Sequence record: NZ_CP019224.1
Length of the DNA: 64,000 bases
From: a plasmid
Strand: one strand, 5' to 3'
Part shown: positions 9,090 through 38,754 of the stretch, piece after piece
Numbering within the stretch: the stretch's first letter is position 1
How the letters are laid out: each line of letters starts with the position of its first letter
Program-made: the position numbers and the translations under genes
The notes under the pieces: model-generated
The model's database searches: none
What the model was told of the DNA's origin: nothing
What the model saw: only the letters and a program-made list of their open reading frames with translations

Positions 9090-10742
9090 TCATGCGGCGT
9101 CCCCTTGCGGGGTTGGGGTTTTGGCCTCTCCGCGTCCGGCCCCGCGTGGGCGGGGTCTTACGGATGCTCCGCCGGCACCGGTTGATCCGGTGTCCGCGCC
9201 ATGGCCTGTACCAACCGATTCGGTTGGCCCGGGTACCGATGGGGCCGTGGTCCCGACTGGACCACAACTGGCGTAATCCGGCCAGTCACGGAGATTCAAA
9301 GCAGCATTTCTATCGCGGTCGACCATTTCACCTGTCTGCGGGCAGATGAGGTGCTTGTCGATCCGGCCCTTACCGACCAGGCGGCATGGGGTGCCGTTGG
9401 GGTGGGTGCAGCGGTGGTGGAGCTGGCTTGATGGGAACCAGCGATCCGCCACGATCAGGGTGCTGCCGTGCCGAGTGGTCTTGTAGGCCAGCATCGGCGC
9501 GACCAATCCCATTGCGGCATCAGAAACAGACCGGCGAAACGCCCGCCGGCCCATACTGCGTTTCATCGCGGCCACATCGAGATCTTCGATCACGACCTGG
9601 CCGTAGGTGCCCGCCAACTGCGTGGTGAGTTGGTGGGCTGCTTCCCGCCGCAGATGCACGCACCGACGATCCAATCGGGTCAGCTTGGCTTTCGCTGCCC
9701 GATGACCGTGCGATCCGGGGATACGGCGGGAAAGTTCACGACCAGCCCTGCGGCGGGCGGCAAGTGTCGCCTTGAGCGGGGCCGGATTCTTATACTCGAC
9801 AACGGTTTCGACGCCGGTGGCGGGGTCGATCGTGGCGACGGTGGCCAGCGTGCGCACCCCCAGATCCACCCCGGCGCGCACCGTGGGCTGAGTCGGCGTT
9901 CTTCCCGCGCTCGGGGTGCGCAGCGCATAGCCGACCGACACGAACAACCGGCCCCACCGCTGGGACAGGGTCATGTTCAGGATGCGGGCGCGCCCCGATG
10001 CGAGATGACGTTGCACGCGGCGGGTGTTCTCCTTGGACCGCAGCGCGCTGATGACCGGGACCGTGATGCTATGGCGGTCATCCTCTACCCGCATGGTGCC
10101 GGTGGTGAACCGGACCCGGCCGGGATCGCGTCGCGCCGTGGCGAACCGCGGGAAACCCACCCGCCGACCCTGGCGTCTCCCGTTCTTGCTGGCGCTCCAG
10201 TTGCTCAGTGCCTGGGCCAGATCGGCCAACCCTGCCGAGTAACACTCCTTGCTGTTAGTGGCCCACCACGGCGCCACCTCGTGCTTAGCGAGATTCCACG
10301 CTTTGCGTAGCGCGCCGAGGTCCCAGCCCAACGACTCATGTTCCGGATCAGCCGATTTCGCGTCGAGGTCGGCCTTCACCCGACCCAGACCCCAGTTGAA
10401 CGCCTTGCGGCGAGCACCGAAATGCGACCGCACCAACGCCGCCCGCTCGGGCTCCGCTGGCCATTCCACCTCGAACTTCGCCGCGGTCACCAGCCAACCA
10501 GAGGCCACTTCCGCACCCAGCGAACCGTTGACCGCATAACCGGCGGCGTCCCCGTCGTAGAGCTTGAACAAGACAGACACCGATTCCACCACCGCACGGT
10601 GCGACTCGAAATCCGCGCCCACATCGACATAACGTGACAATGTTTGGCTGCCATCGGGTTTCGGTTTCCCCGGCAACTGCACACCACCGGTCAGCCCGGC
10701 CACCTTCGCCGCCTGACCACAGGTGCGCATCCCGACGATCAT
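9090..10742 (-). CDS. tnpB: TnpB (IS605/IS607 OrfB, RuvC-like plus zinc finger)
   Basis: C-terminal CTHPNGTPC...CPQTGEMVDRDRNAALNLRDW matches the TnpB zinc-finger/RuvC-III region. ATGA overlap with the tnpA stop at 10742. C-terminal 60 aa are low-complexity and may be read-through. Confidence 0.75.
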   Translation of the reverse strand: MIVGMRTCGQAAKVAGLTGGVQLPGKPKPDGSQTLSRYVDVGADFESHRAVVESVSVLFKLYDGDAAGYAVNGSLGAEVASGWLVTAAKFEVEWPAEPERAALVRSHFGARRKAFNWGLGRVKADLDAKSADPEHESLGWDLGALRKAWNLAKHEVAPWWATNSKECYSAGLADLAQALSNWSASKNGRRQGRRVGFPRFATARRDPGRVRFTTGTMRVEDDRHSITVPVISALRSKENTRRVQRHLASGRARILNMTLSQRWGRLFVSVGYALRTPSAGRTPTQPTVRAGVDLGVRTLATVATIDPATGVETVVEYKNPAPLKATLAARRRAGRELSRRIPGSHGHRAAKAKLTRLDRRCVHLRREAAHQLTTQLAGTYGQVVIEDLDVAAMKRSMGRRAFRRSVSDAAMGLVAPMLAYKTTRHGSTLIVADRWFPSSQLHHRCTHPNGTPCRLVGKGRIDKHLICPQTGEMVDRDRNAALNLRDWPDYASCGPVGTTAPSVPGPTESVGTGHGADTGSTGAGGASVRPRPRGAGRGEAKTPTPQGDAA

Positions 10743-11323
10743 CACGCAGCCCCTGGCTCCCGCTTGGTGGCCGTCACCGCACGCATCGCCCGATTCCGCG
10801 CACCACGACGGCCGTAGAGCCGCGCACACATACTGGTCAGGACCTCGATCATGTCGCGCACCAGATCATCGGTGGTCTCACCCGGATCAGCGACCACGAT
10901 CCGGCGGCCCTGCGCCGACAACGCCGCTTCCAGGTGTTCCACCCCGAAACGCGCCAGCCGATCCCGATGCTCCACAACGATCACCCTCGCATCGGGGTCC
11001 GACAAGATGCGGCGCAGCTTGGGCCGCTTCCCATTCAGCCCGGAACCGACCTCGCACACCACCTGGCCCACCTCAAGATCACGCTCCGTGGCCCACGCGG
11101 TCACCCGCGCCACCTGACGGTCCAGATCCGAGCGCTGATCATGGCTGGACACCCGCGCATACACCACCACCGTCGCCGCCGCACCCGATACCGAGGCTGC
11201 CGCCTTGACCAGAATCAGCCGCCCAACCCGCTCCGCGGGCACCGGCAACGTCCCCTCCCGAAACCACCGATAAGCGGTATGCCGGTTCACACCAACCGAT
11301 TCCGCCCAATCCGCCAGATTCAC
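10742..11323 (-). CDS. tnpA: IS607-family TnpA serine recombinase (MerR-like HTH + resolvase catalytic domain)
   Basis: 193 aa; N-terminal HTH ...VGVNRHTAYRWFREG..., catalytic YARVSSHDQ...DLDRQ serine-recombinase motifs. Confidence 0.85.
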   Translation of the reverse strand: MNLADWAESVGVNRHTAYRWFREGTLPVPAERVGRLILVKAAASVSGAAATVVVYARVSSHDQRSDLDRQVARVTAWATERDLEVGQVVCEVGSGLNGKRPKLRRILSDPDARVIVVEHRDRLARFGVEHLEAALSAQGRRIVVADPGETTDDLVRDMIEVLTSMCARLYGRRGARNRAMRAVTATKREPGAA

Positions 11324-11394
11324 AACACCAATTAGAAGACACTAACGCACACTTAAATGCACTCACTGCGCAACAGCTCGCAACCCCGCCCACG

Positions 11395-12830
11395 GGGCAG
11401 GGACTGTCGCAGTAAGGGTGTAAACGGCCTGATCGGCCCCGGTGTGTCGGGGCCGGAAAGGTCGCATGATGACCGAAACTGTCGTGGCTGTGGAGCCATC
11501 GCAGAATCTCGATGTTGAGGCCGCTGCGGCGGCCATTGAAGTCCCGGATAGCCGTGAGGTCGACGAGCTCGAGGTCGCCCGGGAGCTGGTACGCCAGGCC
11601 CGCGAGGCCGGCGTGGCGCTGACCGGCCCGGGCGGCCTGCTCAAGGCGATGACCAAGACGGTCATCGAGACCGCCCTGGACGAGGAATTATCCGAGCACC
11701 TGGGCTATGACCGCCACGATCCGGCCGGGTACGGCTCGGGCAACTCCCGCAACGGAACCAGGGCCAAGACCGTGCTCACCGATGCGTGCGGGCAGATCGA
11801 GATCGACGTCCCGCGCGACCGCGCCGGCAGCTTCGAACCCGAGATCGTCAAGAAGCGTCAACGCCGCTTGACCGATGTCGATGAGGTGGTGTTGTCGCTG
11901 TATGCCCGCGGGCTGACCACCGGTGAGATCAGCGCCCATTTCGCCCACATCTACGGCGCGGCAGTCTCCAAGGACACGATCAGTCGGATCACCGACCGCG
12001 TGGTCGAGGAGATGACCGCCTGGCACACCCGCCCGCTGGAACGCGTGTACGCCGCGGTGTTCATCGACGCCCTGCACGTCAAGATCCGCGACGGCCAGGT
12101 CGGCCCCAGGCCCATCTACGCCGCGATCGGGGTGGACCTGGCCGGGCATCGTGACGTGCTGGGCATGTGGGCCGGCGAGGGCGATGGCGAGTCGGCCAAA
12201 TACTGGCTGGCGGTGCTCACCGAGCTGAAGAACCGCGGGGTGGCCGACATCTTCTTCCTGGTCTGCGATGGGCTCAAAGGCTTACCGCAATCGGTGGGCG
12301 CGGTGTTCCCCGACACTGTGGTCCAGACGTGTGTCATCCATTTGATCCGTGGGACGTTCCGCTATGCCGGGCGCCAGCACCGCGACGCCATTGCCAAGGC
12401 GTTGCGGCCGATCTATACCGCGGTCAACGCTGAGGCTGCAGCGGCAGCGCTGGACGCGTTCGAGGCCGAGTGGGGTAATCGCTATCCGGCAGCAATTCGA
12501 TTGTGGCGCAACGCGTGGAGTGAGTTCATTCCGTTCCTGGACTACGACACTGAGATAAGGAAGGTGATCTGTTCGACCAATGCTATTGAATCGTTGAACG
12601 CCCGCTACCGCCGCGCCGTCCGGGCCCGCGGTCATTTTCCGACCGAGCAGGCAGCGCTGAAGTGCCTATACTTGGTCACCCGGTCGCTGGACCCGACCGG
12701 GACCGGACAGAAGCGATGGACCATGCGCTGGAAACCAGCCCTGAACGCCTTCGCGATCACCTTCGCCGACCGCATGCCCGGCAGCGAAACCACTTAACCG
12801 AAGATGCCGCTTACACCGTTAATCTGACGG
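11395..12830 (+). mobile_element. IS256-family insertion sequence (ends approximate)
   Basis: Contains an IS256-family (mutator-type) transposase gene; flanks approximate. Confidence 0.5.
11442..12797 (+). CDS. IS256-family transposase
   Basis: 451 aa with the conserved IS256/mutator transposase core ...RVYAAVFIDALHVKIRDG...IFFLVCDGLKGLPQSV...ICSTNAIESLNARYRRAVRARGHFPTEQAALK. Confidence 0.85.
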   Translation: MCRGRKGRMMTETVVAVEPSQNLDVEAAAAAIEVPDSREVDELEVARELVRQAREAGVALTGPGGLLKAMTKTVIETALDEELSEHLGYDRHDPAGYGSGNSRNGTRAKTVLTDACGQIEIDVPRDRAGSFEPEIVKKRQRRLTDVDEVVLSLYARGLTTGEISAHFAHIYGAAVSKDTISRITDRVVEEMTAWHTRPLERVYAAVFIDALHVKIRDGQVGPRPIYAAIGVDLAGHRDVLGMWAGEGDGESAKYWLAVLTELKNRGVADIFFLVCDGLKGLPQSVGAVFPDTVVQTCVIHLIRGTFRYAGRQHRDAIAKALRPIYTAVNAEAAAAALDAFEAEWGNRYPAAIRLWRNAWSEFIPFLDYDTEIRKVICSTNAIESLNARYRRAVRARGHFPTEQAALKCLYLVTRSLDPTGTGQKRWTMRWKPALNAFAITFADRMPGSETT

Positions 12831-12831
12831 A

Positions 12832-12972
12832 CCCACGGGGCTGGGTGCGCCGGGTTGCAGGGCTCACCGATGCCATCGCTGGGGATGGACTTCGGGCGAG
12901 GTTTAGCGGCGGGTGCTGCGGCGGCAGCGGGTGTTCCGCCGGTGACATCGGCGCCGATGACGTCGTTGGCGA
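12832..12972. repeat. about 140-bp duplicated fragment of the internal Pro/Gly-rich region of the 5726-8050 gene (matches 6757-6897)
   Basis: Near-identical DNA (cccacggggctgggtgcgcc...ggcgccgatgacgtcgttggcg) found at both sites; sits next to the IS256-family element. Confidence 0.7.
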
Positions 12973-13078
12973 GATCCAAATAGAGACTCAACGAGTCTTG
13001 CTGTTACACAGGCGAACTGCCGAGGTTTCGACTCGCGAGCTGTACGAACACGCGGGGCAGATGAATTAGTTGGGACCG

Positions 13079-13501
13079 TTAGGGCGCTGGCCAGTAGCCG
13101 ATGACGCCGTTGAATTCGAGGTCGGTTTGGGTGAAGTCGTTGCCGATGGCGATGAGGGGTTCGTGTGCGAGTTTGGCGGTGGCGTAGGCCATGGTGTCGC
13201 CGTAGTTGAGGGCGGCGGGGTGGCGGCCTTTTCCGTAGTGGAGGTAGGCGCGGTGGGCGGCGATCGCGTGTTCGAGGGTGAAGGGCTGGAAGCCGAGGTT
13301 GATTTCGGATCGTAGGCGGTCGAAGACGGTGCGCGCGGTCGCGCCGTGTCGGTTGGTGAGAACGATGAGGCATTCGGCTGCGTTGGCCGTGGACATGACG
13401 GGGCTGGGATCGGCGGCGATGGCGGCCGCGATCTGTTCGGTGTAGGGGTCCTCGCCCTGGATGAGGGCGACGATCGCGGAAGAGTCGATGATCAGGATCA
13501 A
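13079..13501 (-). CDS. vapC: VapC PIN-domain toxin
   Basis: 140 aa; [13 protein letters not shown]... PIN N-terminus; 4-nt overlap with upstream vapB. Confidence 0.85.
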
Positions 13502-13761
13502 ACTCCCGTTGCTGTGTCGTATCCGAGGGCTTGTTCGCGTTCGGTTTTGGTGATTGGGGATCGGTCGTCCAGTAGTGGCCAGATCTCGGTTTTGAGGACG
13601 TCGAGCAGTTCTGCGGAGCGGTTTGCGGTGCGGGATTGGGTGACTTCGATCTGGGCTCGCAGGGCGTAGCGGATGGCGTCGATGCGGCTGGGGAGGTGGA
13701 GGCGCGCGGCGAGCTCGTCTGCGAAGCGGATGACCTCTTCGTCTTTCACGTTGAAAGCCAT
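13498..13761 (-). CDS. vapB: VapB antitoxin
   Basis: 87-aa C-terminal segment of track ORF 13498..14379 ([34 protein letters not shown]...); the rest of that ORF is Arg/Pro-rich reverse-strand artefact. Confidence 0.7.
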
Positions 13762-13862
13762 GGGTACATGGTACCCCGTGGACGGTGTCCGGTACTTCGC
13801 GGGTGATCGCTTTGCCGGCGTGGGTGTGGCCCGGCTGGGTAGTGCCGGGTTAATTTTGTGGG

Positions 13863-14837
13863 GTGAGTGTTGCGGCGTTTGTGGCTGGGGTTGATCGGTT
13901 GCTGAGCCGTGCGCATGAGTTGTTTCCGGCCGGGGGTGCGGGCGGGGCACTGCCGAGCTCGGGTGATGTTGCGGTGCCGGGCTCTCCGGAGGGTGGCAGT
14001 GGTTTGCGGGCCGGGGTGGTACGCGCGGCCGGTTCTTATCAGCAGGCTCGCAGTGGGGCGGCGGGCCTGGATGGGGAGCTGGCGCAAAGCGCCGAGGAAG
14101 GCGCGCAGATCGGGGCCCAGGGCCGGGAGGCGTCGGGGTTGATTCGCGATCAGGCCCGTACCAGCGCGGCCGCGCTGTTGCCGATGGCTCGCACGCCAGC
14201 GGGTGCGCACCTGCTGATGGCGACGATGGATCAACATTTGGCGGCGATGCAGGACCAGCTGCAGACCACCAAAACCCAGTACCAGGCCATCTCGGCGGGA
14301 TTGCGCCAAACCGCCGCCGGCTATCACACCTTGACTGACGGCGCGAAGGACTCACCGCCGGCGGCGCCGCTGGACTCATCGGATAAGTGGAAGCCAGGCG
14401 ACAAGCATCATGAGCCTTACGGGGCTGGCGTGGGCGGGATGGGTCCGCCGAACTATCCCCATTCGCCGCCGTGGGTGGACATTTACGACAGGACGAAAGA
14501 TCCGGATCAGGTTCCGCACTATTTCGTCAGATCTGACGAGATTCCCGGCTACCAGGTCCTTCCGCCGGGGCGCTATGGTCCCGCGACGGTTTACGACGAG
14601 CACGGCAACCCTGATCCTTATGTCCAGTTGGGCCCGAATTCTGGTGTGTGGGTGCCGCAGTCGGCTTTCCCGGGGGCGAAGGTCTATCCGCCGGGTGGGG
14701 GTGAGTTGCCGCCGTATGGGTGGAGTGAGTATGTGCCGGGCTCGGGGATTTTCTTGTGGCACGGGGATTTGATGCCGGAGCCGTATAAGCCGTATGGCCC
14801 GTCCGGGCCGCCGACGATTCCGCAGGGCGGCCGCTAA
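13863..14837 (+). CDS. paralog A of a three-gene family: shared N-terminal helical domain + Pro/Tyr/Gly-rich C-terminus
   Basis: GTG start. N-terminal about 150 aa homologous to the next two genes; C-terminus rich in P/Y/G ([12 protein letters not shown]...); no Sec signal peptide. Confidence 0.6.
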
Positions 14838-14857
14838 ACCGGCCCGAACTGGCGGTG

Positions 14858-15478
14858 CGTGGCTGTGGCCGGGGGGATTTGCTCGGGTTAATTTTGGTGG
14901 GTGAGTGTTGCGGCGTTCGTGGCTGGGGTTGATCGGCTGCTGAGTCGCGGTCATGAGTTGTTCCCGGCCGGGGGGCCGGGTGGTGGGCAGGTGTTCGCCG
15001 CTGGGGGTCGGGTGCCGGTGCCGGAGGCCCCGGATGGCCACAGCGGTTTGACGGGTGGGGCTCGGGCCGCCGGTGGGGCGTATCAGCAGGCGCAGGCCGG
15101 TGCGGATGGTCTTGACGGGGACTCGGGGCAGGCGGTAGCCCAAGGTGGTGAGGTTGGTGCGCAGGGCCGCGCCGGGTCGGGGTTGATTCGGGATCAGGCC
15201 CGCGCGGTGGGTGCTGCGACCGCGGGGATGGGTCGTTCGCCGGCGGGCGCGAAGTTGATCATGGCGGCCATGGATGATCATTTGGCCGCGATGCAGCGTC
15301 AGTTGGATCAGACCACGGCCGAAAACCGGCTGTTGGCGATGCGGATGCGTCAGCTGGCGGCGGGCTATCGCGGTCTGGGTGCAGGTGGGATGGGCGGCGG
15401 TATGCCCCTGTCCGGGCTGGGCGGCTTGATGTCGGGCGGCGGCGGTGGCGGCGGCCTGAGCGGGTTAAGCGGCTTGGG
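14858..15478. repeat. about 620-bp near-identical direct repeat, copy 1 (5' UTR + N-terminal domain of paralog B)
   Basis: Near-identical to 16047-16667 (compared by eye); the two encoded N-terminal domains differ at a single residue over about 190 aa. Confidence 0.8.
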
Positions 15479-16004
15479 GAGCGTGCCTGGAGGGTGGAGC
15501 CGTTTGGTGGGATCGGTCCGCGGGGGCCGGGGGCCGCGGAGCGAGGAAGCGGCGCCGCGCGGCGATGTGGGGACTGCGCTGGGCGGGTTGACGCAGGATT
15601 CGTCTCCGCGTGAAGTGGCTGCAGCGATCATCCATGAGGCTCGCCGGCGCGGCTACTCGCCGCACCAGACGATCGCGATCTTGTCTACGGCGATGCAAGA
15701 AAGCGGGTTGCGTCCTCGGGCTGTGAGTCCGAATGGGTTGTGGAGAAGCATTTTCCAGCAAGACTCGGGTTATCCGGGCCGCAATAATCCCAACACGGCG
15801 ATTTCGGGATTTTTCGATCGGCTGGCCCACCATGGCGGTCCGTCGTCACCGGACATTTGGAAGTCGATCTTCTGGTTACAGCAGCGCCCGGGCGATTCGT
15901 CGGCTGAGGCGGCAGTGGCGCACGGACGTAGGGGCTATTTGAACGAGATCCAGAGTCAGTTGCCCAGGGCGACGGCGTTGTATCGCAGCATCGCCGGAGT
16001 TTGA
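14901..16004 (+). CDS. paralog B: shared N-terminal domain + C-terminal domain with possible lysozyme/transglycosylase-like motif
   Basis: C-terminus ...IIHEARRRGYSPHQTIAILSTAMQESGLRPRAV... has an E-S pair reminiscent of SLT catalytic motifs; this is speculative. Confidence 0.6.
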   Translation: MSVAAFVAGVDRLLSRGHELFPAGGPGGGQVFAAGGRVPVPEAPDGHSGLTGGARAAGGAYQQAQAGADGLDGDSGQAVAQGGEVGAQGRAGSGLIRDQARAVGAATAGMGRSPAGAKLIMAAMDDHLAAMQRQLDQTTAENRLLAMRMRQLAAGYRGLGAGGMGGGMPLSGLGGLMSGGGGGGGLSGLSGLGSVPGGWSRLVGSVRGGRGPRSEEAAPRGDVGTALGGLTQDSSPREVAAAIIHEARRRGYSPHQTIAILSTAMQESGLRPRAVSPNGLWRSIFQQDSGYPGRNNPNTAISGFFDRLAHHGGPSSPDIWKSIFWLQQRPGDSSAEAAVAHGRRGYLNEIQSQLPRATALYRSIAGV

Positions 16005-16046
16005 CCACCACCACCACAACGATGTACGAGGATGCTGCGAATTTTG

Positions 16047-16667
16047 CGTGGCTGTGGCCGGGGGGATTTGCTCGGGTTAATTTTGGTGGGTGAGTGTTGC
16101 GGCGTTCGTGGCTGGGGTTGATCGGCTGCTGAGTCGCGGTCATGAGTTGTTCCCGGCCGGGGGGCCGGGTGGTGGGCAGGTGTTCGCCGCTGGGGGTCGG
16201 GTGCCGGTGCCGGAGGCCCCGGATGGCGACAGCGGTTTGACGGGTGGGGCTCGGGCCGCCGGTGGGGCGTATCAGCAGGCGCAGGCCGGTGCGGATGGTC
16301 TTGACGGGGACTCGGGGCAGGCGGTGGCCCAAGGTGGTGAGGTTGGTGCGCAGGGCCGCGCCGGGTCGGGGTTGATTCGGGATCAGGCCCGCGCGGTGGG
16401 TGCTGCGACCGCGGGGATGGGTCGTTCGCCGGCGGGGGCGAAGTTGATTATGGCGGCCATGGATGATCATTTGGCCGCGATGCAGCGTCAGTTGGATCAG
16501 ACCACGGCCGAAAACCGGCTGTTGGCGATGCGGATGCGTCAGCTGGCGGCGGGCTATCGCGGTCTGGGTGCAGGTGGGATGGGCGGCGGTATGCCCCTGT
16601 CCGGGCTGGGCGGCTTGATGTCGGGCGGCGGCGGTGGCGGCGGCCTGAGCGGGTTGAGCGGCTTGGC
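16047..16667. repeat. about 620-bp direct repeat, copy 2
   Basis: See copy 1. Confidence 0.8.
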
Positions 16668-17130
16668 GTCGGGGATACCGGCGTCACTGATGGGCAGCCT
16701 GAGTCGCGGCGGCGGTGAGAACGGGGGGCCGGGTGAGCAGTCGGGCGCTTCGCTTCTGGGCGGCGGTGGCAGTGGGACGGCGCTGCGGGCGGTGCAGTTC
16801 GCCGAGACCAAGTTGGGTGATCCGTACGTGTGGGGCGCGACAGGGCCGCGCCAATACGACTGCTCCGGGTTGGTGATGGACGCCTACCGGCACGCGGGGG
16901 TTCAGTTGCCGCGCATGACCTACGACATGATTCACAAAGGTATGACGGTGGATCGCGCTGAGGTGCGGGCCGGTGATCTGGTGTTTTCCAATTTCTCGAG
17001 CAGAGGGCCGGAGCATGTGCAGATGGCGGTGTCCTCGACGAAGGTCATTGAGGCGCCCACCCCGGGGGGCCACGTCCAGTATTCGGGCTTCCCGCGTGGG
17101 CATGTTGTCGTGAAAAGAATTGTCGGATAA
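16090..17130 (+). CDS. paralog C: shared N-terminal domain + C-terminal NlpC/P60 peptidoglycan endopeptidase domain
   Basis: C-terminus LGDPYVWGATGPRQYDCSGLVMDAYRHAGVQLPR...H carries the NlpC/P60 Cys-His signature. Confidence 0.75.
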   Translation: MSVAAFVAGVDRLLSRGHELFPAGGPGGGQVFAAGGRVPVPEAPDGDSGLTGGARAAGGAYQQAQAGADGLDGDSGQAVAQGGEVGAQGRAGSGLIRDQARAVGAATAGMGRSPAGAKLIMAAMDDHLAAMQRQLDQTTAENRLLAMRMRQLAAGYRGLGAGGMGGGMPLSGLGGLMSGGGGGGGLSGLSGLASGIPASLMGSLSRGGGENGGPGEQSGASLLGGGGSGTALRAVQFAETKLGDPYVWGATGPRQYDCSGLVMDAYRHAGVQLPRMTYDMIHKGMTVDRAEVRAGDLVFSNFSSRGPEHVQMAVSSTKVIEAPTPGGHVQYSGFPRGHVVVKRIVG

Positions 17131-17147
17131 CGATTTAACGGTGGGTA

Positions 17148-18689
17148 TTGACGGTGGTTGAGCCGGGAGTGGATAAGGACGACGAGTCGCGCTGGCGCGG
17201 GCGCGGTCTGGGGCTTTCGACGCGGGTACAGGTGTCGGGGCACATGTTTTTCGCCCGTCGCGCGGTGGCGGCGATGACTCGGCGGCGGGTGCGGATGGAG
17301 GCCGAGCCGGGCCGGCGCCAGTCGATGGCGATGTTGGCGGGTGTGACGCTGACCGCTGTGCTGTGTCTGGGGGCGTTGTTCTGGTCGTTTGTGCGCCCGG
17401 CCGGTTCGGCGGGGCAGGCGCGGATTGTGGCCGATCAGGATTCGGGGGCGCTGTATGTGCGGGTGGGCGAGAAGCTGTATCCGGCGTTGAATTTGTCCTC
17501 GGCGCGGTTGATCGCCGGGGAGGCGGCCAGCCCGGTTCGGGTGCGCCGCAGCGAGATTGACGCAGCGCCGCGCGGGCCGCTGGTCGGTATTGCCGGCGCC
17601 CCGCAGGATATGGTGGCGACGTCGCCGGGTCGCTCGTCGTGGTTGGTGTGTGATGAGATCACCAAGGCGTTCGGGGCGGCTGCGCCTGAGCCGGTGACGG
17701 TGACCGTCATCGACGGCCAGCCCGAGCTGGGTCCACGCCGCCACGTGCTGGGCCCTGATGATGCGATGGTGCGCCGCTATGGGGATGCGGTGTGGTTGAT
17801 CCGCGATGGGCGGCGCTCGTTGATCAATCAGGGTGCTCGGGCGGTGCTGTTGGCGTTGGGGCTGGGCGAGGATGCGGTGTTGGGGTCGCGCCCGATGAGC
17901 CGGGCCTTATTCGATGCGATCCCGGTGGGCCCGGAGTTGTCGGTGCCGGTGATCCCGAATGCGGGCTCGCCGGCACGGTTCGCGGGGGCGCCGGGCCCGG
18001 TGGGGACGGTGGTATCGACTCCGCAGGTGGGTGGGCAGACCGCGTATTCGGTGGTGCTCACCGATGGCGTGCAGCCGGTGTCGCCGGTGGTGGCTCAGGT
18101 GCTGCAAAATGCCGGGCCGGCCGGTGCGGTGATCCCGGTGGTGGCTGGCCCGGTGTTGGCGAAGTTGCCGGTGGTGCAAACCCTGGACTTGTCGGCGTTC
18201 CCGGCTACCCCGCCGCGGGTGATCGATAGCCAGGTCAACGCCGCGGCGTGCTGGCACTGGGAGAAGGTGAGCGGTGAGGCGCTGGCTAGCACGTCGGTCA
18301 TCGCCGGCCCGAGCATCCCGGTGGCCGAGGGCCAAGTGGACAAAGTGGTGGACTTGGTGAAAGCCCCGGGGCCACAGATGCAGGCCGACCGCGTGTATCT
18401 GGGCCCTGAGTACGCCAATTACGTGGTGTCCACCGGTAATTCGCCGTCAGCGGCCACGGTGGAGTCGTTGTGGTGGATATCCGAATCAGGGGTGCGGTTC
18501 GGGGTGCCGCGCCAGGAGGACACGATGAACGCTTTGGGTTTGAAGAAGCATTCCCCGAGCCCGGCGCCGTGGCTGGCGCTGCGGCTGCTGGCCGCCGGGC
18601 CGGCATTGTCGCGCTCTGATGCGCTGGTGCGTCACAACACGCTGCCTGTCGATGCCAACCCGGCCGAACTGGAGGTCCCGAAGTCATGA
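17148..18689 (+). CDS. eccB: ESX type VII secretion membrane component EccB
   Basis: N-terminal ...LSTRVQVSGHMFFARR... EccB signature, single TM, large periplasmic domain; ATGA overlap with eccC. True start may be a few codons downstream. Confidence 0.9.
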   Translation: MTVVEPGVDKDDESRWRGRGLGLSTRVQVSGHMFFARRAVAAMTRRRVRMEAEPGRRQSMAMLAGVTLTAVLCLGALFWSFVRPAGSAGQARIVADQDSGALYVRVGEKLYPALNLSSARLIAGEAASPVRVRRSEIDAAPRGPLVGIAGAPQDMVATSPGRSSWLVCDEITKAFGAAAPEPVTVTVIDGQPELGPRRHVLGPDDAMVRRYGDAVWLIRDGRRSLINQGARAVLLALGLGEDAVLGSRPMSRALFDAIPVGPELSVPVIPNAGSPARFAGAPGPVGTVVSTPQVGGQTAYSVVLTDGVQPVSPVVAQVLQNAGPAGAVIPVVAGPVLAKLPVVQTLDLSAFPATPPRVIDSQVNAAACWHWEKVSGEALASTSVIAGPSIPVAEGQVDKVVDLVKAPGPQMQADRVYLGPEYANYVVSTGNSPSAATVESLWWISESGVRFGVPRQEDTMNALGLKKHSPSPAPWLALRLLAAGPALSRSDALVRHNTLPVDANPAELEVPKS

Positions 18690-21600
18690 AGATTGGGTTC
18701 GCGCGCAAGCAAACTGCGCAGGCGCCGCCGTTTAAGCCTGAAACCCTTGACCTGCCGACTCCACTGAAAGTGCCGCCGCCACAAAGCAAACCGCTGTGGT
18801 CGGTGGCGTTGATCATCGGCCTGCTTGCGCTGTTCGGCGGAATGATGTGGATCAGCTTCGCCAGTGGTGCGCGCTCGTTTACCGGCGCGGGGTCATTTTT
18901 CCCGCTCCTGATGGTGGGCGGGCTGGTTGCGATGCTGTTCGGTGGCCGCGGCGGGTCGCAGGAGATGTCGCGCTCGAAGCTCGACGCGCTGCGGGCCCGG
19001 TTTTGCATGGTCATGGACGAGCTGCGAGGAACCACCTCAGAGTTGGCGGACCGGCTCGATCAGAATCACCGCTGGTATCACCCCGCACCGGGCACCCTGG
19101 AAGCGGCCGTGGGCAGTATGCGGATGTGGGAGCGCAAGCCCAACGGGTCTGATACATGGTTCGGGGTGGCCCGGGTCGGGGTGGGCATGACGGATCTGAT
19201 GGAATCCAATGCCGCCGTGTTCAACGAGCCGCAGGACGCGCCGACCGATATCGAGCTCGAACCGGTGACCGGCAAGGTCCTCCAAGAGTTCATGCAATAC
19301 CAGACGGTGGCCTACGGCACGCCGAAACTGGTGTCGCTGATGGTGGAGCCCGGCTATGAGCTACGCGGCCCGCGTGAGCGGGTGCTGGGCCTGATGCGCG
19401 CGATCCTGTGCGAATTGGTGTTTTTCCACGGCCCCGATCATCTGCGGCTGGTGGTGGTGACTTCTGATGCGGCCGAGTGGGATTGGGTGAAGTGGCTACC
19501 ACACGCCGGTGATCCGAAGCTCATTGACGGTGCGGGCCCGGTGCGCATGGTCTATGGGTCGGTCGCTGAGTTCCTTGACGCGCAAACTGAGGCAATGTCG
19601 CTGTCCACCCGCGGGGACTTCCGCTCGCGCCTGGGCGCGTCGAAGGACCCTATTGAGCCGTTGCCGCACACGGTGGTCGTGTGCGACACCGAAGCGGGAT
19701 GGGAGCGTCTCGGAAGCTCCGAAGGCGTCGCTGGGTTGACATTTTTCGACGTGCGCGGCCTAGGCCGCGTTCCGGCGTGCCGCGACGCGCGCCGGCGAGT
19801 GTTGTACATCGGTGAGAACGCTGTCATCTCGGCGGTGCCGCGCGACCCGATGACATGGGATCCGCAGGGGAACGATCCCCAGTTTTTCGCCTACGCCGAT
19901 CAGATGAGCCGCGATGAGGCCGAGACGTTCGCCGAGCGCATGGCGCGCTTCCGGCTCGCCGAGGCCTATGAGGCGATCGAAGTTGATTCCGGCAAGCAGG
20001 TGATGGCCCGAGACATCCTGTCGTACTACGGGATTGAGGACGCCGCCAATATTGATTTCGACAAGTTGTGGGGCCCGCGTAGTGACATCAACTCCCTGCA
20101 GCGGTTGAAGGTGCCACTGGGTAACCGGATGGACAACAATGAGCTGTTTTTCGTCGACATCAAGGAGGACTCGGAAGGGGGCCAGGGCCCGCACGGGGTG
20201 ATGGCCGGCACGACTGGCTCGGGCAAGACGACGATGCTGCGCGCCTTCATTGAGTCTCTGATGTTGGGGCACCCGCCGCAAAACCTGCAGTTCATGTTGG
20301 CCGACCTCAAGGGTGGCTCGGGTGTTCGGCCCTTTGCCGGGGTGCCTCACGTTTCGCAGATCATCACCGACCTCGAAGAGGACCAGGGTTTGATGACCCG
20401 TTTCATCGACGCGCTGGATGGCGAGATCGCGCGGCGCAAAGCCTTATGCGATGTGCCTGGCGCTGATGATGTGGGGGTATACAACAAGATCCGTGCCGAT
20501 CAGCTCGCAGCGGGGGCTGCTGAGGTGTTGCCGCCGCTGCCGGTACTGGTGGTGGTCATTGACGAGTTCGCCGAACTGTTTAAGTTGATGGGTCAAGAGA
20601 TTCAGGACTCGTTGTATCAGATCGCCCGCCAAGGCCGCGCGTATTGGATTCATCTGCTGATGGCCAGCCAGCAGATCGAAACTCGCGCTGAGAAGCTGCT
20701 AGAAAACGTGGGGTACCGGATGGCCCTGCAGACCAATACGACACAGTCAGCCACGGCGATCGGTGTGCCGAATGCGGTGAACCTCAAGGGTTCTGGGCAG
20801 TGCTATTTCTTGCAGGGCAGCCCCGCGAACGGCACGCTGACGAAATTTCAGGGCGAGTTCTTGTGGCGTGAGTACCGCAAGCCTGGCACGGAGGACCTCG
20901 ACGACGCGCCGCAAGTGAGCGCGGCGTCAGTGAGTTATTTTGCGCCGCAACTGTTCTCCACGGACTTCACACCGTTGCCGCCGCCTGATGAGCTCGACGA
21001 GTCGCCAGCTGTGGATGGGGAAGTGGCTGATGTCGACGAGGTGACCGACGCGGGCGATAGCGAGGACGCCGAGGAGCGCAATGCGTTGATGCGCCCACAG
21101 GTGGGGCGCATCATCATCGACCAGCTGCGCCGGATTGACTTTGAGCCTTACCGGTTGTGGAAGCCGCCGCTGGATGCGCCGTGGAGCATCGAGAAACTGG
21201 TGAACACCTATCTGGGGCGGCCCTGGGACAGCGACTATGCGCGCACCCCGAACCTGGTGTTCCCTGTGGGGCTGGTGGACCGGCCATTCAAGCATGACCA
21301 GCATCCGCTGACCATTGACGTGTCGGGCCCGGGCGGCAATGTGGTGATCGTGGGTGCTCAGGGCTCGGGCAAAACGACTGCGCTGCAAGACCTGATCTGC
21401 GCGGCGGCCATGACGCACACCCCTGAGCAGGTGCAGTTTTACTGCCTGGCGTTTTCGTCGGCGGCCCTCAGTAGTGTGTCGGGGCTACCGCATGTGGGTG
21501 GTGTGTCGATGTCGCTTGATAGTGACGGTGTGCGCCGCACCGTGGCGGAGATCGCGGCGTTGCTCGCCTCGCGCAAGCGCAGCTTCGAGGCGACCGGCGT

Positions 21601-22912
21601 GATGTCGATGGAGGTGTTTCGCCGCCGCAAGGCTGGGCGTGAGCCCGGGGCTGTGCCTGAGGACGGTTACGGCGATGTGTTCTTGGTGATCGACAACTAT
21701 GCGGCGATGGTTAGCGAATATGAGGCGCTCGTCGAAGACAAGGTGAACAGGATCATCAAAGAGGGGCCCACGTTCGGGATTCACGTGGTCGCCGCGGTGA
21801 CCAAGAACACCGATCTGCAGGTGACGGTGCGGGGTAACTTCGGGTCTCGGGTGGAGCTTCGTCTGGCCGACTTCAACGAAGCGACGCTGGTGGCTAAGGC
21901 GAGACTGGCCACGGCTGTGCCGGCGCGGCCAGGGCGCGGCATGATTGGGCAAAATTACGAACGCACCGGCGTAGACCCCGTGGGGTTGCACACGTTGATG
22001 GCGCGCCCGGCGCTGGAGTCCACCGCCGCGGAGGTGTTCGATTCACGCAGTGTCGCCGAGGCTGTCAGCCGCCAGGCCGGTAGGTTCAATCCTGCACGTA
22101 AGGTGCGCAGGCTGCCAGGGCGGGTTTCGCCGGCCGAGCTGGCGGCGACAGCCGCCACCGATGATCGCACCCCCACGTCGATCGTGTGGGCGCTCGACGA
22201 GACCGAACGGCCGGTGTTTTTGGCCAGTCAGCATCTGATCATCGCCGGGCAACCCAAGTGTGGGCGCACGACGGCGTGTGCAACATTGATGCGCGAGATT
22301 CGCAGGGTTTACGCCCCGGGCGCTGACGGCGCTACGGGGCCGGGGCTGGAAGAAACGGCCGACCGCCCCGCGGCCCAGGTGTGGCTCATTGATCCGCGCC
22401 GCCAGCTACTCAACGTGCTGGATAAGTCCTACGTGCAGCGTTTCGCCTCGACGCCGGACTCGGTCAAAGCGCGCATGGGCGAGCTGGCCGCGGTCCTTGC
22501 GCCGCGGCTGCCCAGCGACGATTTATCGGTCGATGACATCGGCCGGCGCCACTGGCAGGGTCCGGAAATCTTTTTGATCATCGACGATTCTGAGCGGTTG
22601 CCGGTCGGCTTCGACTCACCTCTGGGGGTGATCGAACGGTTCGTGCAGGCCGGCGACGACGTCGGGTTGCACATCATCTACACCCGCCAGTTCGCGGCGT
22701 TCATGGCGGGCCTGGGGGCCGACCCCGTGTTCAGGATGCTCAAGCAGGCCAGGGAGCCGGAGCTGATCATGGATTCCGACCCCGATCAAGGATTCGTGAA
22801 GGGCAAATGGAAAGGCCATTGGATGCCCAAGGGCCGCGGATTCTTGCTGAATACCGCCGAATCGGGCGAATCGGGAATTTATGTCCAAGTCGCTGACGCC
22901 GGCCTCGGATAG
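18686..22912 (+). CDS. eccC: EccC, FtsK/SpoIIIE-family ATPase with three NTPase domains (single fused ORF)
   Basis: 1408 aa; N-terminal TMs; Walker A motifs GTTGSGKTT, GAQGSGKTT and GQPKCGRTT. Confidence 0.95.
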   Translation: MKIGFARKQTAQAPPFKPETLDLPTPLKVPPPQSKPLWSVALIIGLLALFGGMMWISFASGARSFTGAGSFFPLLMVGGLVAMLFGGRGGSQEMSRSKLDALRARFCMVMDELRGTTSELADRLDQNHRWYHPAPGTLEAAVGSMRMWERKPNGSDTWFGVARVGVGMTDLMESNAAVFNEPQDAPTDIELEPVTGKVLQEFMQYQTVAYGTPKLVSLMVEPGYELRGPRERVLGLMRAILCELVFFHGPDHLRLVVVTSDAAEWDWVKWLPHAGDPKLIDGAGPVRMVYGSVAEFLDAQTEAMSLSTRGDFRSRLGASKDPIEPLPHTVVVCDTEAGWERLGSSEGVAGLTFFDVRGLGRVPACRDARRRVLYIGENAVISAVPRDPMTWDPQGNDPQFFAYADQMSRDEAETFAERMARFRLAEAYEAIEVDSGKQVMARDILSYYGIEDAANIDFDKLWGPRSDINSLQRLKVPLGNRMDNNELFFVDIKEDSEGGQGPHGVMAGTTGSGKTTMLRAFIESLMLGHPPQNLQFMLADLKGGSGVRPFAGVPHVSQIITDLEEDQGLMTRFIDALDGEIARRKALCDVPGADDVGVYNKIRADQLAAGAAEVLPPLPVLVVVIDEFAELFKLMGQEIQDSLYQIARQGRAYWIHLLMASQQIETRAEKLLENVGYRMALQTNTTQSATAIGVPNAVNLKGSGQCYFLQGSPANGTLTKFQGEFLWREYRKPGTEDLDDAPQVSAASVSYFAPQLFSTDFTPLPPPDELDESPAVDGEVADVDEVTDAGDSEDAEERNALMRPQVGRIIIDQLRRIDFEPYRLWKPPLDAPWSIEKLVNTYLGRPWDSDYARTPNLVFPVGLVDRPFKHDQHPLTIDVSGPGGNVVIVGAQGSGKTTALQDLICAAAMTHTPEQVQFYCLAFSSAALSSVSGLPHVGGVSMSLDSDGVRRTVAEIAALLASRKRSFEATGVMSMEVFRRRKAGREPGAVPEDGYGDVFLVIDNYAAMVSEYEALVEDKVNRIIKEGPTFGIHVVAAVTKNTDLQVTVRGNFGSRVELRLADFNEATLVAKARLATAVPARPGRGMIGQNYERTGVDPVGLHTLMARPALESTAAEVFDSRSVAEAVSRQAGRFNPARKVRRLPGRVSPAELAATAATDDRTPTSIVWALDETERPVFLASQHLIIAGQPKCGRTTACATLMREIRRVYAPGADGATGPGLEETADRPAAQVWLIDPRRQLLNVLDKSYVQRFASTPDSVKARMGELAAVLAPRLPSDDLSVDDIGRRHWQGPEIFLIIDDSERLPVGFDSPLGVIERFVQAGDDVGLHIIYTRQFAAFMAGLGADPVFRMLKQAREPELIMDSDPDQGFVKGKWKGHWMPKGRGFLLNTAESGESGIYVQVADAGLG

Positions 22913-23331: not shown

Positions 23332-24486
23332 ATGGATTACGAGCTGCCACCTGAGATCAACTCGGGCCGCATGTATGCCGGCCTGGGTTCAGCGTCTCTG
23401 ATGGAATCAGCCGCCGCATGGCAGGCACTGGCCGCGCAGCTCGGGTCCGCAGGAGCGGCGTTTGGGGCGGTGATCGAAGCGCTGACCAGCACGGCGTGGG
23501 CGGGGCCCTCGTCGATGTCGATGGCGCTGTCGGCAGCCCCGTACGTGGTGTGGATGATCGAGACGGCCGCGCAATGCCAGGAAGCCGCCGCGGCCGCGGC
23601 GGCGGCCGCGGCGGCGTTCGAGGCTGCCCGGGCCGGGGTGGTGCCCCCACCGGTGATCGCCGAGAACCGGGCGCAGCTGGCGGCCCTGGTGTCGACGAAC
23701 TTCATGGGGTTCAACACTCCGGCGATCATGGCCAACGAGGCTCACTACGGTCAGATGTGGTCCCAAGACACCGCGACGATGTACGACTTCGCCGGGAATG
23801 CCTCGGGGATCACCGGCGCGCTGGTCCCGTTCGTGCCGCCAGCGCCCAACTCGGACCCGATCGGGTTGGCCGCGCAAGCGGCCGCGTTGGGCCAGTCGGG
23901 CGGCACCGCCGCCGGGCAGCAGCCGTTCAATTTCGCCAGCAGCGCGGGAAGCATGCCGGCGGGTTTGGACGGCGAATCCATGTTGTCGATGGGCCCGCAG
24001 CTGGTGAGCACGATTCCCCAAGCGCTGCAAGGGCTCTCGTCACCGCTGAGCCAGGGGTTGGGGGGCAGCGGTCTGGGCCAATTCAATTCGCTGCTGAGCC
24101 CGTTTATGAGTTTTATGAATCCGGGCATGTTCGGTGGGGGCACTGCGTCGACCTTGACCAGTGCGACCGGGCCCGGACTTGCGGGGATGGGCGGGGCAGC
24201 CTCGGAGGTGGAGGCCGTGGCGGGCCGCGCGGGATCGCTGGGCGGGTTGTCGGTGCCGGCAACCTGGACGGCCGGCGCCAGCGGGGAGTCGGCTAGTACG
24301 GCGCGGGCGGTCGCACCGGTGGCCGCCTCGGGCGGGGGCACGTCGATGGGGGCTGCACCGGCCACCACCGGGGGCTCCGGCATGTATGGGGGCACGCCGA
24401 TGGCCGCGGGTATGCACGGGCGCGGCACGGACAGCGACGGCTCACCTCGCTATGGAAAACCCGTCAAAGTGCTACGCCGACGTTAG
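23332..24486 (+). CDS. PPE-family protein
   Basis: MDYELPPEINSGRMYAG... PPE N-terminus; Gly/Ala/Ser-rich C-terminus. Confidence 0.9.
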   Translation: MDYELPPEINSGRMYAGLGSASLMESAAAWQALAAQLGSAGAAFGAVIEALTSTAWAGPSSMSMALSAAPYVVWMIETAAQCQEAAAAAAAAAAAFEAARAGVVPPPVIAENRAQLAALVSTNFMGFNTPAIMANEAHYGQMWSQDTATMYDFAGNASGITGALVPFVPPAPNSDPIGLAAQAAALGQSGGTAAGQQPFNFASSAGSMPAGLDGESMLSMGPQLVSTIPQALQGLSSPLSQGLGGSGLGQFNSLLSPFMSFMNPGMFGGGTASTLTSATGPGLAGMGGAASEVEAVAGRAGSLGGLSVPATWTAGASGESASTARAVAPVAASGGGTSMGAAPATTGGSGMYGGTPMAAGMHGRGTDSDGSPRYGKPVKVLRRR

Positions 24487-25333: not shown

Positions 25334-26254
25334 ATGACGAGCGCCGAAATTCCGGCCACCCCGACTTCTGACATCACCGTCAACCTCGAGGGACTGTGGC
25401 TGCTGCAAGCCATGCTGGGCATTCCCCAGCTCGCCCCCGAACTGCGCGGACGCCCCTACGGACAACCACGAAACACCGACTGGCTCACCGCGCACCCGGG
25501 TTTGGCGGTGCTGGTCGACCAAGGCATCGCCGATGAGGATGCGATGGTGCGTGCTGATATCGCCGCGCGCATGAAGGTGCTGGCCGCGCCCGACGTTGAA
25601 GTCATCTTGCTGGTCTGCCGCGGGGCGATGAACGTGGTGACACCGGTGGTGATGGATGATCCCACTACCTGGCGCGCGATCCCCGATGAGCAGCTGCGCG
25701 TTGTGCTGGCCCGCCGCGACGGCCGGTGGGCCTCTGCGGTGCGCGCCGGGTCCTACGTCACCATTGACGACTGTCCGGGCACCGACCAGGAATGGGTGCA
25801 ACGCCTAGTCTTTGAAGCTCTGGACTCGGTGCACTGGGTGGAGCCGGCGCGGATCAGCGCGGTCAACGTGCCGCTGGATGACATGCGTACCGCGATCACG
25901 TTGCACGCCAAGGCGGGCTCGGCAGCAGCGAAAATGGCTGCGCTGCGCGCACTGGGGCTGCGCGGGGGTGCGCTGGCTGAGCTGGGCGCGGCGTTAGAAG
26001 ATCCCCAAGCTGAGGCGTTGGTTTATGCGCGCGCCCATGTGGATGCCGACACGGTGTGGAGCGAAACGGTGCTCAACCTGCGCGACACTGCCTCGGGGCG
26101 GGTGGCGCTGTACCGACTGAACCCGCCCGCGGGCAGCCAGCAGGAGTGGCTGGCCATCGCCCCGGCGGGTCCTGCCCAGCTGCATCACGCGCTGACGACG
26201 GTCTTCGACAGTGTCGGTGTGCGCGCCTGGGACAGTCATGAACGAATGGCCTGA
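25334..26254 (+). CDS. espG: EspG chaperone for PE/PPE substrates (EspG5-like)
   Basis: 306 aa; ...DITVNLEGLWLLQAMLGIPQLAPELRGRPYG...ARMKVLAAPDVEV... recalled as close to EspG5. Confidence 0.85.
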   Translation: MTSAEIPATPTSDITVNLEGLWLLQAMLGIPQLAPELRGRPYGQPRNTDWLTAHPGLAVLVDQGIADEDAMVRADIAARMKVLAAPDVEVILLVCRGAMNVVTPVVMDDPTTWRAIPDEQLRVVLARRDGRWASAVRAGSYVTIDDCPGTDQEWVQRLVFEALDSVHWVEPARISAVNVPLDDMRTAITLHAKAGSAAAKMAALRALGLRGGALAELGAALEDPQAEALVYARAHVDADTVWSETVLNLRDTASGRVALYRLNPPAGSQQEWLAIAPAGPAQLHHALTTVFDSVGVRAWDSHERMA

Positions 26255-29358: not shown

Positions 29359-29374
29359 CGGGGGTGGTTGTTCG

Positions 29375-38690: not shown

Positions 38691-38754
38691 TGACGTGTGT
38701 TTGAGTTAATGAGCCATTCGCGGTTGGAAATACCCAGCCAGGTCCGCGGCGTGC

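Follow-up and report, generated by a model that had tools for sequence, protein, structure and literature searches.

What do three consecutive genes, joined by a common N-terminal domain and set apart by their C-terminal ones, contribute to the ESX locus that they precede? The genes, here called A, B and C, lie in a 64,000-nucleotide (nt) stretch of plasmid record NZ_CP019224.1 (hereafter the window), whose plasmid is of the conjugative pRAW/pMyong1/pMAH135 type of Mycobacterium. They stand directly 5′ of a full ESX locus and on the same strand, as an earlier note made from the sequence had described, and eccB, the first core gene of this ESX-P locus, starts 17 nt beyond the stop codon of C. 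That note had also speculated that the products may be ESX-secreted hydrolases serving conjugation or secretion, which the sequence evidence makes plausible. We hold with moderate confidence that A, B and C form a modular, cell-wall-acting set of the ESX-P locus, which would be exported through the shared N-terminal domain (N-domain) and would open the wall for conjugation. The features on which the argument turns are these:

13863-14837, + strand: gene A, 324 amino acids (aa); A-type N-domain, aa 1-160 (13863-14342), and Pro/Tyr/Gly-rich beta domain, aa 164-324 (14352-14834)
14856-15477, + strand: repeat copy 1, with TAATTT at 14889-14894 and the N-domain and Gly-rich linker of gene B
14901-16004, + strand: gene B, 367 aa; B/C-type N-domain, Gly-rich linker and predicted lysozyme-like (Phage_lysozyme2 or lytic-transglycosylase-like) domain, aa 225-367 (15573-16001)
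15699-15701, + strand: codon of the putative catalytic Glu267 of gene B
16045-16666, + strand: repeat copy 2, with TAATTT at 16078-16083 and the N-domain and Gly-rich linker of gene C
16090-17130, + strand: gene C, 346 aa; B/C-type N-domain, Gly-rich linker and NlpC/P60 (C40) domain, aa 243-332 (16816-17085)
16861-16863, 17014-17016 and 17050-17052, + strand: codons of the predicted catalytic residues Cys258, His309 and Glu321 of gene C

The N-terminal ~160 residues can be aligned in all three proteins. Over this region A is 58-59% identical to B and C, bearing out the homology that the earlier note had proposed, and B and C differ from each other at a single residue within the first 160. At the nucleotide level, B and C share a repeat of 622 nt with 5 mismatches, its copies 1189 nt apart, which runs from ~45 nt 5′ of the start codon to the end of the Gly-rich linker. 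The near-identical block reported earlier is thus present, at coordinates 2 nt away from those first given. The three genes had also been credited with the same GTG start context. This holds for B and C, which are preceded by exact copies of the 23-mer GGGTTAATTTTGGTGGGTGAGTG at 14885 and 16074, whereas gene A has the 2-nt variant GGGTTAATTTTGTGGGGTGAGTG.

The C-terminal domains had been called as Pro/Tyr-rich in A, possibly lysozyme- or transglycosylase-like in B and NlpC/P60 in C, and all three calls were right. Protein C matches the Pfam NlpC/P60 family (PF00877, MEROPS C40) at aa 243-332 with 71.4 bits (cut-off 23; E 7e-20). It finds 36 NlpC/P60 chains in the PDB at E<=1e-3, among them 7cfl (1.6e-15), and an NCBIfam RipC-like model matches its catalytic domain only (1.5e-19). 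When C is aligned with 7cfl, Cys258 (in DCSG), His309 (PEHV) and Glu321 (VIEAP) fall opposite its Cys, His and His, so that the Cys/His pair is in place, and Glu as the third residue makes a RipA-type triad. Protein C is therefore predicted to be an NlpC/P60 endopeptidase that cuts stem peptides.

The assignment of B comes through its relatives. Its C terminus has 111 close homologues in mycobacteria, and 25 of 30 aligned homologues match Phage_lysozyme2 (PF18013; best 8e-6), while 7 of the 30 weakly match SLT (PF01464). The MQESGL motif contains Glu267, a Glu invariant in the 30 homologues, and a profile built from them matches a fungal muramidase (8b2h, 4.9e-4) with Glu267 placed over the Glu of LVESNI. 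By tblastn, the domain is 54-56% identical to part of mycobacteriophage lysin A (E 4e-43); it occurs in 473 phage records, tape-measure proteins of Gordonia phages included. Window B by itself scores 15.3-17.2 bits against PF18013, below the cut-off of 28.2, has no match to SLT in Pfam, and finds nothing in a single-sequence search of the PDB. Because of the Pfam matches of its homologues, the profile match to 8b2h and the similarity to lysin A, B is predicted to be a lysozyme-like, glycan-cleaving enzyme, though its own sequence in the window falls below the Pfam thresholds.

We then compared the arrangement of the genes in ~20 further genome loci and in annotated plasmids. The same order recurs: a gene for a ~280-aa domain, N-domain with Pro/Tyr domain, N-domain with glycosidase, N-domain with peptidase, eccB and eccC. 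Within this order the glycosidase module is either lysozyme-like or SLT, and the peptidase module either NlpC/P60 or LAS-type, in the following combinations:

Lysozyme-like with NlpC/P60: this window, p20KCMC460_01, M. interjectum
SLT with NlpC/P60: pS2a, pMA100, M. chimaera
SLT with LAS-type: M. gordonae p1, M. kyorinense
No glycosidase, NlpC/P60: pRAW, pMyong1
No glycosidase, LAS-type: locus L030

The LAS-type domain (WHPNGxAIDVM ... DHVH) takes the place of NlpC/P60 at 8117-9196 of locus L008 (M. gordonae p1) and in L030, L031 and L033. It has no match among Pfam models, and it aligns at 2e-12 with the catalytic domain of PDB entry 9flh ('LysM domain-containing protein'), including H...D...DHVH. 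Unrelated enzymes of the same class are thus interchanged, which argues strongly that the function under selection is the cutting of peptidoglycan glycan strands and stem peptides.

The third cargo, the C terminus of A, is a Pro/Tyr/Gly-rich, beta-rich domain with no fold neighbour in the PDB or among viral structures; a single-sequence search of the PDB was likewise empty. Its partners elsewhere are more informative. The same domain is carried by PPE (PF00823, 5e-17) on an M. riyadhense plasmid, next to a MobF relaxase; by PE plus PPE/WXG100 on an M. rufum plasmid; by EspC-like N termini (PF10824, 4e-8), named 'type VII secretion target' in the source annotation; and by DUF4226. These fusion proteins have plasmid-like genomic contexts. 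In all, the Pro/Tyr domain is found on five types of carrier from type VII secretion systems (T7SSs), always on mycobacterial mobile elements. That one cargo sits on PPE, PE-PPE, EspC-like and DUF4226 N termini supports the N-domain as a T7SS carrier.

The N-domain itself matches no Pfam model in A, B or C, and DUF4226 (PF10774) is absent from these proteins even at E<=0.1. At the level of profiles, the N-domain and DUF4226 align along the whole domain (hhalign, 149 columns, 92.5% probability, E 4.8e-7); 4 of 57 family members match Pfam DUF4226 directly (best 9.6e-5), and the protein of gene A aligns end to end in BLASTP with a DUF4226 protein of an M. lentiflavum plasmid. On these alignments the N-domain is a remote homologue of DUF4226. 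The Pro/Tyr cargo of A occurs on DUF4226 proteins too, and these are weakly similar to EspA/EspE (PF18879). Unlike the N-domain of the window, DUF4226 relatives keep a WxG-like 'GWxG'. An AlphaFold2 model of the N-domain, computed from an 80-sequence alignment (predicted local distance difference test score 90.9), shows a short helix (3-19) and a Gly/Pro loop ahead of a hairpin made of two long helices (49-112 and 114-162), with a conserved SPAG at the turn in place of WxG.

Searched by profile against 1.84 billion representatives, the N-domain belongs to a family of 211 representative clusters. Among the 169 sequences examined in which the C-terminal end of the N-domain could be located, 60, about a third, stand alone (less than 40 aa past the domain). 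The longer members end in at least 12 recurrent C-terminal classes, of which the six largest are NlpC/P60, Pro/Tyr, lysozyme-like, SLT, 'DPRNPF' and LAS-type metallopeptidase; peptidoglycan hydrolases make up four of these six. The N-domain is restricted among plasmid records, where tblastn finds it in only 19, all from Mycobacterium or Mycolicibacterium, at 1-5 sites each.

Several further members of the family deserve mention. The 'DPRNPF' domain, the fifth commonest cargo (carriers P0176, P0196, P0208, P0213, P0228 and P0308), is ~230 aa long, reads DPRNPFxGDxRFGxW ... YKFRIxGEDxTxYT and has no Pfam match. Other cargos include Gly-zipper-like hydrophobic tails with a terminal Cys, and Abhydrolase_8. 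Divergent stand-alone N-domain proteins of ~160 aa are encoded at 6125-6604 of locus L009 (an M. crocinum plasmid) and at 7198-7671 of L033, in both cases between the glycosidase and peptidase genes of a plasmid that has no Pro/Tyr gene. By analogy with the Lap proteins of LXG toxins, such stand-alone proteins may be partner proteins. On a metagenome contig (L046, 2350-7793), a fusion of DUF4226 with NlpC/P60 lies beside genes for a 580-aa DUF4226 protein and for EspC-like, PPE and YbaB proteins; the carrier-hydrolase architecture thus occurs at a distance from eccB as well, with canonical DUF4226 as the carrier.

How would such proteins leave the cell? The earlier note had found no Sec signal peptide, and we agree: no hydrophobic segment, basic N-terminal region or twin-arginine motif was seen in A, B or C, as judged by inspection and Kyte-Doolittle hydropathy rather than by a signal-peptide predictor. 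The maximum hydropathy over 19 residues is at most 1.15, too low for a membrane helix. Since the proteins lack a Sec or Tat signal and yet have their substrate outside the cytoplasmic membrane, ESX-P may recognise and export them through the N-domain itself. Their place at the head of a T7SS locus essential for transfer of this type of plasmid, the kinship of the N-domain to DUF4226 and the presence of the cargo of A on T7SS domains point the same way. Measured against what is expected of a T7SSa substrate, the proteins offer a hairpin domain and an ESX-adjacent gene without a Sec/Tat signal; their N-domain has no WxG or YxxxD/E signature.

From these observations we propose a working model. 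The N-domain of A, or of a stand-alone protein, would dimerise with that of a B- or C-type protein, much as EsxA/B and PE/PPE form pairs, and the set would be exported by ESX-P. Outside the cell, the glycosidase and the peptidase would cut peptidoglycan locally, and the opening would let ESX-P and the apparatus for conjugation, which resembles a type IV secretion system (T4SS), span the wall. The repeat that holds the B/C N-module serves as a recombination substrate by which cargo cassettes are swapped, added or deleted.

Several observations weigh against this model. The earlier note had advised looking for YxxxD/E export signals; in the search that we ran, W.G and Y...[DE] patterns are both missing from the N-domain, and its conserved Tyr156 has no acidic residue at +4. 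A Foldseek search of the hairpin against the PDB returned generic coiled-coil or BAR-like neighbours only, all at E>1, with no link to WXG100, PE, EspB or LXG. The window proteins fall below the Pfam thresholds for DUF4226, SLT and Phage_lysozyme2. Locus L030 shows a single N-domain gene in the sequence available, which weakens obligatory dimerisation, and we keep the obligatory heterodimer as speculation. The near-identity of the B and C N-modules could be purely mechanical, from gene conversion of adjacent repeats without selection; we entertain both this and selection, for instance for a shared partner. pRAW conjugates efficiently without a B-type gene, so the glycosidase, at least, is dispensable, and transposon work on pRAW covered only eccC and virB4, with neither hydrolase-type gene mutated (PMC4173767). 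Our literature search returned no report of ESX-dependent secretion of A-, B- or C-type proteins, nor of a mutant in one of their genes.

One pattern that does fit YxxxE lies in the C-terminal domain of A. Residues 285-289 (YGWSE, 14715-14729) belong to a conserved Y-G-W/Y-x-E found in nearly all homologues. This position is inside the beta-rich domain. Because it does not come after a helical hairpin, YGWSE is probably not a T7SS export motif.

A long hairpin ahead of a hydrolase could also be read in another way. RipC, EnvC and PcsB dock on FtsX by long helical hairpins, and the N-domain may likewise be a coiled-coil regulatory or docking arm, as in proteins of the RipA, RipC, EnvC and PcsB kind, that tethers and gates the hydrolase on a membrane complex, for example at the periplasmic domain of EccB or at T4SS-like parts, while the protein leaves by another export route. 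The best NCBIfam match of C is RipC, the FtsEX-RipC complex 8idc is among its PDB matches, the AlphaFold2 model is a long hairpin with generic coiled-coil neighbours only, and the lack of WxG and YxxxD/E in the N-domain speaks for this reading too. However, the similarity to RipC and RipA is confined to the catalytic domain, the proteins have neither a Sec/Tat signal nor a membrane anchor to offer another route, and the cargo of A occurs elsewhere on bona fide T7SS substrate domains (PPE, EspC-like, PE-PPE). We give docking as the explanation a small chance, although docking and export are not mutually exclusive. Slightly less probable still is a role as polymorphic effectors against other bacteria, in which the proteins would be the T7SSa equivalent of LXG toxins, delivered by the donor to kill or weaken competing mycobacteria or recipients and not to remodel its own wall. 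The architecture, a conserved helical N-domain with at least 12 exchangeable C termini, is that of polymorphic toxins; recombination exchanges the cargo cassettes, and an alpha/beta hydrolase and Gly-zipper-like hydrophobic tails are among the other C termini. Yet there are no candidate immunity genes, since the gaps of 63 nt (A-B), 85 nt (B-C) and 17 nt (C-eccB) are too small for an open reading frame (ORF). Toxin loci are typically variable, whereas in ~20 plasmids here a glycosidase and a peptidase keep a fixed place at the start of an ESX locus that conjugation requires, and the enzyme types are those of housekeeping proteins or endolysins. For want of immunity genes, and given the fixed pair of enzymes, we judged the antibacterial reading unlikely.

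The triplet might, finally, have no functional significance, as a recent local duplication with domain swaps or as a set of decaying paralogues. The 99% identity of the B and C N-modules in the window would fit, as would the absence of B from pMyong1 and pRAW, and the earlier note had taken one duplication to be recent. The comparison between plasmids contradicts this. Seven plasmids each have a block of ~570-680 nt in both the glycosidase gene and the peptidase gene; it starts at about -50, stops where the linker ends, and is 98.7-99.4% identical between the two genes of a plasmid. Over the first 560 nt, within-plasmid identity is 97.3-100%, while orthologous N-modules in different plasmids have diverged to 60-84%. 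Such near-identity within all seven plasmids (7/7), set against lower identity between them, points to concerted evolution and not to a single recent event. A-type N-domains group apart, in an older clade (63-80% identical among plasmids, 48-60% to the B/C type), so that A-type and B/C-type domains are two old lineages. The ORFs are intact and the catalytic residues conserved across plasmids of Mycobacterium and Mycolicibacterium. We rejected a single recent duplication on the identities within and between plasmids and on the two old clades, and regard a functionless triplet as very improbable. As the sequences have it, the B/C N-module is kept homogeneous by concerted evolution, through gene conversion or unequal crossover, and the same repeat drives gain and loss of cargo cassettes, gene B included. 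p20KCMC460_01 and pMyong1 are 100% identical across the region save for one 1180-bp repeat unit missing from pMyong1, and the exact loss of this unit is the expected product of recombination between the 624-bp repeats.

The proposed export and opening of the wall can be set against known systems, beginning with pRAW (M. marinum E11). This plasmid has direct orthologues of A (MMARE11_RS26630) and C at the start of its ESX-P locus. The C-terminal domain of A is 74% identical to that in the window, and identity over the N-domain is 67% for A and 72% for C; pRAW differs in having no B-type gene. Conjugation of pRAW requires ESX-P1 (eccC), and Ummels et al. (2014) proposed that mmarE11p_00580 and mmarE11p_00590, called 'NLP/P60', replace VirB1 (PMC4173767). 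In our comparison, of the two genes published under that name only the C type has the NLP/P60 domain, and the A type shares the N-domain with it. Dumas et al. (2016) noted that most ESX-P loci, and the ESX-2 synteny block too, contain an NLP/P60 gene, which they linked to CwlT (PMC4779608). The genes and the idea of a role in conjugation have thus been known since the work on pRAW in 2014. A literature search on DUF4226 and on later functional work with ESX-P hydrolases returned nothing past these two papers. For a link to M. tuberculosis ESX-2 (Rv3896c), our genome scan, which used close-relative patterns only, retrieved no M. tuberculosis locus, and the literature on Rv3896c was uninformative.

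VirB1 of Gram-negative T4SSs and CwlT (ICEBs1), PrgK (pCF10) and TraG (pIP501) of Gram-positive conjugation are presumed to open the wall locally for the transfer apparatus, and EssH does the same job for the staphylococcal T7SS. These conjugation loci likewise combine a glycan-cleaving activity of the lysozyme or SLT kind with an NlpC/P60 or CHAP peptidase, and A, B and C resemble this class of conjugative peptidoglycan hydrolases in lying on a conjugative element with transfer genes and in having glycosidase and peptidase domains. They differ in that the two activities are on separate polypeptides, that a DUF4226-like helical domain replaces the signal peptide or membrane anchor, and that the genes are in a T7SS locus, whereas those of the VirB1 class are in T4SS loci; kinship in sequence is at the level of the catalytic superfamily only. 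Mycobacteriophage lysin A and RipA/RipB/RipC have catalytic domains in common with B (lysin A) and C (Rip) and a similar mix-and-match modularity. Holins give lysin A and other endolysins access to the wall, signal peptides do so for RipA and RipC, and none of them has the N-domain of the window.

The LXG toxins of T7SSb in Firmicutes are alike in their elongated helical N-domain of ~160-200 aa, exchangeable enzymatic C termini and location in a type VII locus, and their small helical partners may have counterparts in the stand-alone N-domain proteins. In contrast, the set in the window has no immunity genes, its cargo is mostly wall hydrolases as a fixed pair, and it belongs to T7SSa in a diderm mycobacterium; A, B and C have neither a Pfam match nor a detectable fold match to LXG. 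A wider proposal, which we put forward tentatively and consider doubtful, is that the DUF4226-like hairpin defines an unrecognised class of T7SSa carriers, the actinobacterial counterpart of LXG, which would take at least 12 cargos through plasmid ESX systems. Heterodimers of an A-type or stand-alone protein with a B/C-type protein would then explain the identical N-modules, and the domain of A might be a conjugation-specific module with a new fold that works at the surface or on the mycomembrane.

Each gene also appears to carry its own promoter. In gene A the promoter-like element is at 13851-13862 (+ strand): TAATTT, a -10 hexamer of the TANNNT form, then 6 nt and the GTG start. The motif TTA[A/G]TTT followed by GGGTG, which ends in the GTG start, is invariant in 12 paralogues from 5 plasmids, with 3 variable nt between the two parts. 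In the window the element occupies 13847-13862, 14885-14900 and 16074-16089, so that each gene has its own copy of the TA[A/G]TTT hexamer 6 nt 5′ of GTG. In mycobacterial promoters, a -10 hexamer this close to the start predicts a leaderless transcript, and from the hexamers we infer that A, B and C are probably each transcribed as leaderless mRNAs. A scan for sigma-70 consensus promoters gave no match. Weak terminator-like hairpins with a T-run overlap the -10-like motif; they are poorly conserved, and we prefer the leaderless promoter to the terminator hairpin as a reading.

The surroundings of the triplet are those of a conjugative plasmid. Region 13500-17500 is matched by 16 Mycobacterium plasmid records, and from end to end it shares 95% identity with p20KCMC460_01. 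Elsewhere the window encodes a TrwC relaxase, a VirD4-like coupling protein, TcpC and a VirB4-like ATPase, and the ESX locus 3′ of gene C has an ESX-2-like gene order. The principal neighbouring features are these:

5726-8050, + strand: 774-aa ORF, with homology in its last ~285 aa (7166-8020) to a gene of ~280 aa annotated 'chemotaxis protein'
17148-18689, + strand: eccB, first core ESX-P gene (Pfam T7SS_ESX1_EccB 2e-143; TIGR03919 1.5e-139)
18686-22912, + strand: eccC
23332-24486: PPE gene of the PE/PPE genes downstream of eccC
25334-26254: espG
26375-27847: ParA-like gene
27715-29358: eccD
29330-31075: mycP
30982-32667: eccE
32690-34522: eccA

The C-terminal part of the 774-aa ORF corresponds to the ~280-aa gene at the head of the recurring order, which lies 5′ of the hydrolase array in most related loci, among them L010, L011, L013, L018, L020, L022, L026, L030, L031, L033 and L037. 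In a tblastn search of the window, its C terminus is 55% identical to one such ~280-aa protein (gord_1; E 2e-92). The equivalent in pS2a has 769 aa and bears the annotation 'WXG100 family type VII secretion target'; a Pfam search with the 774-aa ORF of the window gave no match. This ORF may encode one more conserved partner in the system. Insertion sequence (IS) elements and a VapBC-like pair separate this ORF from gene A. These mobile and addiction elements, called from resemblance and from the annotation of related plasmids, take up 9090-13785:

10742-11323 and 9090-10829, - strand: IS607-like pair
11442-12797, + strand: IS256-like transposase
13079-13501 and about 13498-13785, - strand: VapC/VapB-like pair

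On the - strand, the VirB4-like ATPase region (37251-41812) is apparently split into an AAA_10 ORF (37251-38543) and a 519-aa ORF (40253-41812), with an integrase-core (rve) ORF (38755-40347) between the two VirB4-like pieces. pMyong1 is 98% identical in the flanks of this region, and its span is ~1.5 kb shorter. An IS may have inserted in the VirB4-like region, and transfer of this particular plasmid may be inactivated.

Beyond what was published for pRAW, the literature that we searched contains no description of the DUF4226-like carrier domain, the lysin A-type cassette of B, the replacement of enzymes by non-orthologous ones, the concerted evolution of the N-module, or the orphan Pro/Tyr domain on five kinds of T7SS N-domain. 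Should export not be confirmed, the finding would come down to the annotation of wall hydrolases of plasmids, which earlier papers had already described and given a likely role. The homogenisation of the N-module illustrates repeat-driven shuffling of cassettes in accessory genes of a secretion system. The locus bears on how the mycobacterial conjugation apparatus or the ESX machine passes peptidoglycan and mycomembrane, and on what marks ESX substrates beyond the Esx, PE/PPE and Esp families. As a test case it is compact: the activities of the enzymes are easy to assay, the proteins lack a Sec signal and share a helical N-domain, and pRAW, which needs ESX-P1 for its transfer, is open to genetic work. 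An N-domain that proved to be an export module would add a class of substrate and could be used to direct cargo to ESX systems.

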